From contig OZ024752.1 in assembly GCA_964016885.1 (NCBI GenBank), positions 248,001 through 312,000 of the forward strand: a stretch of DNA of 64,000 bases, read 5' to 3'. Below are positions 7,076 through 7,280 of this stretch, piece after piece. Position numbers and translations under genes: made by a program. The DNA comes from Eledone cirrhosa. Taxonomy: Eukaryota. Position 1 is the first letter of the stretch. Every line of letters begins with the position of its first letter. Under the pieces are notes generated by a model, which saw only the letters and a list, made by a program, of their open reading frames with translations, ran no database searches and was not told where the DNA came from.

Positions 7076-7277
7076 TAACGAAGGAAATGTGGTAAGGAAC
7101 CAGGTGGACCATAACGCACCAAAGTACTCAATACTTAGGGTAGTAGAGTGGGTAATAGGAACGAGTAGGACCCCGACGGCTGAGCTCAAGCCGTTTCGAC
7201 GGCTAATTCTGGACTCAATTGTCCAGAATTAGCCGTCGAAACGGCTTGAGCTCAGCCGTCGGGGTCCTACTCATTCC

Positions 7278-7280
<3 letters not shown>
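7076..7280. mobile_element. Half-hammerhead fold-back element, family P copy 1
   Basis: Arms 7155-7214 and 7221-7280 are inverted around the loop tcaatt. Each arm carries GAA-ACGGCT-tgagctc-AGCCGT-C-gggg (HHR 3' half). An ~80-bp tail is shared with the other copies. Confidence 0.85.

Follow-up and report, generated by a model that had tools for sequence, protein, structure and literature searches.

In a 64,000-nt stretch of the Eledone cirrhosa genome (contig OZ024752.1, positions 248,001 to 312,000, assembly GCA_964016885.1; hereafter the window), five short palindromes lying in (TA)n carry half of a hammerhead ribozyme motif in each arm, raising the question of how such inverted half-motifs are formed. 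The original prediction was that a single cDNA stops in stem or loop II, folds back, self-primes its second strand and joins the target at cctat. The analysis favours a different origin: the palindromes would be 5'-truncated head-to-head insertions of a Penelope-like element (PLE), the arms of which likely derive from two separate primings, likely running off the RNA 5' end (probability roughly 0.65). They represent a new family within a known clade and a known layout, and the structure itself is ordinary.

Head-to-head arms in the window and across the genome

All five palindromes were confirmed, each with TA-type microsatellite on its flanks. With the hammerhead cleavage nucleotide C17 numbered 0, these insertions and related features are arranged as follows.

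7076-7219, minus strand: tail arm, about -44 to +99, comprising the 3' half of the hammerhead and a 79-nt tail
7221-7280, plus strand: inverted no-tail arm, -39 to +20, stopping at cctat before (TA)n
12863-13062: head-to-head insertion, with tail arm 12863-13001 (minus) and no-tail arm 13001-13062 (plus)
27565-27760: head-to-head insertion of a more divergent subfamily, with tail arm 27565-27696 (minus) and no-tail arm 27699-27760 (plus)
50701-50900: head-to-head insertion, with no-tail arm 50701-50762 (minus) and tail arm 50764-50900 (plus)
51309-51503: head-to-head insertion, with no-tail arm 51309-51366 (minus) and tail arm 51367-51503 (plus), the tail ending at about +89
51537-52480, minus strand: long tail arm of the same element, from the 3' UTR through the tail
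51615-51725, minus strand: complete type I hammerhead motif with the U3-A8 core UUGAAAA and an extended stem/loop II
57037-57141, plus strand: solo tail arm, -5 to +99

The order within each arm is the 3' strand of stem II, GAAA, stem III, GUC and the gggg strand of stem I, and the proposed identity of the arms, as 3' halves of type I hammerheads, was borne out in all five palindromes. The short arms had been described as stopping at cctat and passing into (TA)n; all five in the window end at +20, as do 69 of the 78 inverted arms in the tail-anchored sample described below. Complementarity to TA at the (TA)n ends was likewise correctly noted, as was a Penelope-like origin, for which a parent with RT and GIY-YIG has been found. 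The list of five copies stood, but it had overlooked the long arm of the same element at 51537-52480; BLAST of the first copy against the window returned further arms at 51539 and 57037. An inverted partner was sought alongside the 51537-52480 arm, and none was seen.

Other inverted structures are present in the same region. Tandem units of 310 bp, all bearing a CUGAUGA hammerhead motif, make up a head-to-head array at 47258-50020; its arms are 99% identical and lie in (TA)n, giving it the look of a retrozyme-type two-armed insertion. Palindromes of two other families, at 35041-35345 and 38326-38992, carry whole hammerhead motifs in both arms, with axes upstream of the core, and three more (230-458, 7488-7779 and 25730-25994) belong to unrelated families with 88-96% identity between arms. 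At loci L033, L038 and L052 (about 1280-1550), the 5' end of a palindrome-family arm is fused to the 5' half of another family's hammerhead (window 43411), forming chimeric hammerhead-like motifs, in L038 via a short common stretch.

Across the 3.0-Gb genome, an exact tail 31-mer gave 35,472 matches and an exact stem II/III 29-mer reaching -39 gave 29,937, while reversed control patterns gave none. Exact counts reaching further 5', obtained with slightly differing patterns, were 23,709 at -40, 9,966 at -44 (T-subfamilies only) and 5,777 at -49. A strict core 22-mer had 1,061 matches; it undercounts long arms because subfamilies differ there, making 5,777 the better figure. The parent family has tens of thousands of arms genome-wide, and at least 5,364 palindromes have both arms exact to -39.

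Arm ends were mapped in 100 insertions located by an exact match to the tail 31-mer, all within the first 19 Mb of a single contig (C1), after dropping one duplicate from 101 rows; such a sample favours young copies. BLAST ends, hand-corrected for six tail arms and one inverted arm, were preferred because a lenient local aligner over-extended 5' ends. The 5' ends of 62 tail arms fell at -47 to -33, with 11 further upstream and 27 shorter. Short insertions had an adjacent inverted arm in 78 of 91 cases, and 61 of these 78 inverted arms also had 5' ends at -47 to -33. This zone comprises the 3' part of a loop II extension of about 35 nt and the adjoining end of stem II, and at this wall short arms outnumber long ones by about four to one. 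An inversion axis at loop II is thus supported as an enrichment in a 15-nt zone, and axes random with respect to stem II were not seen; the claim that it falls there exactly was too strong, given the spread and the 27 shorter arms.

The hammerhead motif and its parent element

The half missing from the palindromes had been taken to be CUGANGA, which proved wrong; the element has UUGANAA, a U3-A8 variant. In longer copies the 5' half runs through cccc, TTGANAA, stem II and the loop II extension, and TTGANAA is present in 19 of 21 copies that were not selected on the core. A parent with canonical CTGANGA was also considered: among its 33 genome matches, the 30 inspected were all junction accidents or chimeras, none with an intact parental 5' half. 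In the window, an intact 5' half lies at about 51680-51725 within the long arm, where the core boxes TTGANAA, GAAA and GUC and three stems in a three-way fold form a type I hammerhead motif. The minimum-energy fold of 51615-51725 is a three-way junction, with a z of -1.47 that is not significant against shuffles; among nine folded loci, this junction was the minimum-energy structure in two and a competing hairpin in the other seven. Rfam gave no hammerhead at 51600-51760, nor among the 150 of 222 window matches listed. A non-LTR retrozyme, built of tandem non-coding units with a whole hammerhead each, was rejected as a source, the stubs being without a 5' core and not in tandem.

Six loci (L100, L108, L205, L206, L231 and L237) carry internal deletions between two AGCCGTC copies (-29 to -23 and -6 to 0) and have lost the stem III hairpin; the same repeat also permits a competing fold. 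In two of 30 ORF-bearing copies, L218 and L236, the 5' ends lie at 0 and +1, the predicted cleavage site.

The parent contains a 710-aa open stretch with YRDD and VIY..YIG, read as a single ORF with RT and GIY-YIG endonuclease, the arrangement of endonuclease-positive PLEs. Neighbours in an atlas, at 0.96-0.99, bear HTH_animal, GIY-YIG and RVT_1, and a Pfam scan of the ORF returned no families. The ORF lies upstream of a 3' UTR of about 1.1 kb that separates it from the hammerhead arm, in a monomer of about 3.6 kb. In ORF-bearing copies, +21 to +99 continues without interruption into the 5' region of the ORF, which identifies this segment as the PLE tail. The layout is also that of endonuclease-positive PLEs, with a pLTR resulting from partial tandems, an inverted 5'-truncated copy and a one-sided tail.

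From these features the parent is predicted to be a Hydra-clade PLE, bearing RT plus a GIY-YIG domain at its C terminus. Passages of Craig et al. (2021; PMC8557442) define this clade by an RWK-like motif, DKT, a CxCX5C linker, no CCHH, and CxxC and CxH. The ORF contains RWR at 27, DKT at 109, CNCPDRSIC at 564 (the CxCX5C linker), CNLC at 662 and CKH at 690, with one Cys between VIY and YIG and no CCHH, and the element is inserted into (TA)n, as in Hydra. The assignment rests on these motifs set against the definition and on by-eye comparison with passages of the supplement to PMC8557442. Neptune and Nematis were rejected, there being no CX2-5CxxC match and no cysteine pair inside the GIY-YIG core, as was Naiad, which has an N-terminal endonuclease and no hammerhead, whereas the present element has its endonuclease at the C terminus and does carry a hammerhead motif. 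Four motifs of the palindrome family were not found in those supplement passages, so that, as far as they show, the family is not Hydra-1_Obim. An open stretch of 452 aa at L123:4794-6149 (minus strand), which belongs to a different but similar PLE RT family, adjoins a long arm of the palindrome family.

Two proposed primings and the 5' boundary of the arms

The left and right arms group by locus, and the separate clades expected of a single ancestral inversion were not seen: in 43 pairs, arms differed by a mean of 1.7 positions within a locus against 4.8-5.0 between loci, and the lowest value in 10,000 shuffles was 3.5. A nearest-neighbour test gave 3 arms nearest to their own partner, 23 ties and 17 nearest to another, many arms being identical. 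Junctions were unlike among copies 97-100% identical and among 50 listed junctions. Common variants were shared by the two arms in 89 cases and confined to a single arm in 11; for private variants the corresponding figures were 1 and 29. The variants shared between arms, originally read as copy-specific, are therefore subfamily markers; repeated origin of the inversions stood, but local homogenisation was rejected on the private variants. The inversion is rebuilt at each insertion.

We propose that the endonuclease would cut both strands of (TA)n and that one cut end would prime at +20 and the other at +99, either on a single RNA or on sibling RNAs of common source. If the transcript is linear and capped and begins at A(-40) or A(-44), the two cDNAs would run off, at about 60 and 140 nt, and their ends would then be united by end joining that involves short overlaps and templated inserts. 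Long and partial-tandem copies would derive from a template that is continuous and has no end at the zone, either a circle or a read-through tandem RNA, both of which have been proposed for PLEs (PMC4209133).

The two separate primings are better supported than the start site. One tail arm and one no-tail arm were found in nine of nine long pairs, and the priming sites at +20 and +99 both end in TAT. The two arms of an insertion agree in length class: no long partner was seen for the 78 short arms, and among 11 further long arms the five partners seen all pass the zone. Of the first 100 core matches, 56 were in head-to-head pairs (hand count). A purified PLE protein cuts and extends both strands, starting at two internal sites that define the tail (PMC11167929). 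The same work found that hammerhead cleavage is not needed in vitro and that priming occurs at non-homologous sites, which counts against the two-priming run-off reading, as does a wall that is a 15-nt zone and not a single base.

At the upstream edge of the zone, A(-40) lies in TTAGT or TCAGT and, in some subfamilies, A(-44) lies in TCATT, motifs that we take to resemble initiators as known from Drosophila. They are short enough to occur by chance. An internal promoter is present in the pLTR of Penelope (PMC2377424). In the first 100 non-T rows, the base beside A(-40) was C in 47, G in 45 and A in 8; C at -41 is templated in one subfamily, which explains it only partly, and G at -41 was seen in one intact copy (L215). 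By hand count of 100 arms, 77 reach -40, where the next cDNA base is A 48, C 14, G 13 and T 2 times, and the other 23 stop at -39, where it is G 15, A 6 and C 2 times, so that C stands against T at 14:2 after -40 and against A at 2:6 after -39 (p 0.005). Beyond -44 in the same arms, the cDNA has C in six cases and A in one. In L1 and SVA, an untemplated G at the 5' end is a mark of capped RNA (PMC4859970), and the extra G after A(-40) or A(-44) suggests an RNA cap; the equal frequency of C at -41, and G's attributable to the partner arm in about 4 of 15 rows, count against it.

Twin priming might also be combined with a different stop, a pause of the RT at a hammerhead that is folded or protein-bound in one RNA state. 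The zone does lie on the 3' side of a small hairpin in the extended loop II, the stops spread over 15 nt, and two RNA states could account for the agreement in length between arms. Such a pause is nonetheless unlikely, as it requires a block-free state for every full-length copy and leaves the extra G after A(-40) and A(-44) unexplained. A poorer case can be made for short, non-autonomous source loci that already start near -44 and undergo copying in trans: they would retain an internal promoter and would suit the four-to-one excess of short arms, but the commonest short subfamily is also found with an intact hammerhead (L170 and L073), the PLE described in passages of PMC11167929 depends on RNA lying 3' of the tail, a stretch missing from short copies, and this reading would still call for two primings together with an RNA 5' end at the wall.

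Snap-back self-priming predicts several of the same observations, namely the clustering of 62 of 100 5' ends around loop II, the subfamily variants common to both arms (89 against 11) and junctions unique to each insertion, and self-priming has already been proposed for PLEs (PMC3846280). Its difficulty lies in the no-tail arm, which under snap-back can only copy the first cDNA, so that any sequence absent from the tail arm counts against it. Among 76 short insertions, the no-tail arm extended 5' beyond the tail arm by 10 nt or more in 14, and the arms had no sequence in common in four, as where -40 to +18 is joined to +50 to +98. In 28 long pairs the tail arm was longer in 17, the no-tail arm in eight and three were unclear; the excess in those eight was above 100 nt, reaching 2.7 kb. 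Such asymmetry could partly stem from deletion after insertion. By hand count, 11 of 50 junctions were perfect palindromes without a loop, and in a few insertions the arms differ in subfamily-type letters (#32, #58 and #60; L151/L152). The same kind of palindrome is made in the window by other hammerhead families, where each arm holds a whole ribozyme.

Continuous copies weigh further against a stop guided by stem II. Among 30 copies chosen on the 5' region of the ORF, nine end before the upstream hammerhead zone; the 21 that reach it all continue beyond -90 (18 once four duplicates on C14 are merged). Stops in the zone thus number 0 of 21 continuous copies (0 of 18 after merging) against 62 of 73 tail arms (Fisher p 7e-12), and loop II is no stop to copying on continuous templates. 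Longer no-tail arms, loop-less junctions and copies crossing the zone leave snap-back guided by stem II unsupported; as a general route it is largely refuted and very unlikely, though it could survive for a subset of insertions. The pathway had also been thought undescribed: the layout and self-priming are in print, the latter since 2013 in passages of PMC3846280 that make no tie to the hammerhead stem, while the link to stem II was found in none of the papers searched. Scarcely credible is a single ancestral MITE-like palindrome spreading as a unit, since, despite forty near-identical 205-nt copies (95-100% identity), junctions vary even among near-identical copies where a MITE would be a fixed inverted-repeat unit copied whole, arms sort by locus and subfamily and not by side, and a retroelement parent exists.

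Relation to known systems and implications

In L1 twin priming, the second priming takes place at variable sites and leaves two non-overlapping pieces; here both priming sites are fixed and the arms usually overlap. The two systems would share target ends that prime separately, giving an inversion, and an extra G at the RNA 5' end (PMC4859970). The standard layout of PLE insertions has an inverted 5'-truncated copy and a tail at one end only (PMC8557442, Figure 2 legend; PMC3846280), and the present insertions resemble it in their head-to-head arms, one-end tail and partial tandems. They differ from the layout in those sources in having a tail of 79 nt, not 30-40, and in that most retain only two stubs, about 60 and 140 nt long, whose ends fall in one 15-nt zone. 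Compared with the Hydra elements in the passages of Craig et al. (2021; PMC8557442), mostly below 3 kb and with a canonical core, this family has a longer monomer and a U3-A8 core with a long loop II. The U3-A8 variant is known from Cercyon PLEs (Cervera and de la Pena, 2014; PMC4209133), where the same core covariation occurs in a pLTR and paired motifs on opposite strands are also noted; here, with a stem III of 5-6 bp and the loop II extension, the motif is no minimal one.

Poseidon PAc in vitro (Frangieh et al., 2024; PMC11167929) offers a close parallel to the proposed priming, with two internal start sites defining the tail, an AT-rich target, and cutting and extension of both strands, as proposed for the present family. 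In this family each start site ends in TAT, in agreement with the target, and the passages of PMC11167929 give no account of the inverted junction. The origin of PLE inverted ends and tails is stated as open in PMC8557442. A literature search, mostly outside subscription journals, found no paper linking PLE inversion points to hammerhead stem II or a start site, and no account of twin priming for PLEs or of this 15-nt wall; hammerheads are unmentioned in the passages of an octopus repeat paper (PMC13282606).

The genome-wide set of exact palindromes speaks against self-priming and for two-ended priming, and the run-off reading predicts RNA starts at -40 and -44, a cap-derived G and no stop on extended templates. 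Tentatively, and with somewhat more doubt than confidence, two-ended PLE integration may work from two templates. A capped mRNA starting inside the hammerhead, with its only tail copy near the 5' end, would yield paired 'strong-stop' stubs, and whole elements would arise only from RNA that is circular or read-through, which hammerhead cleavage would make possible. If this is true, the stubs would be a genome-wide record of a two-template life cycle.
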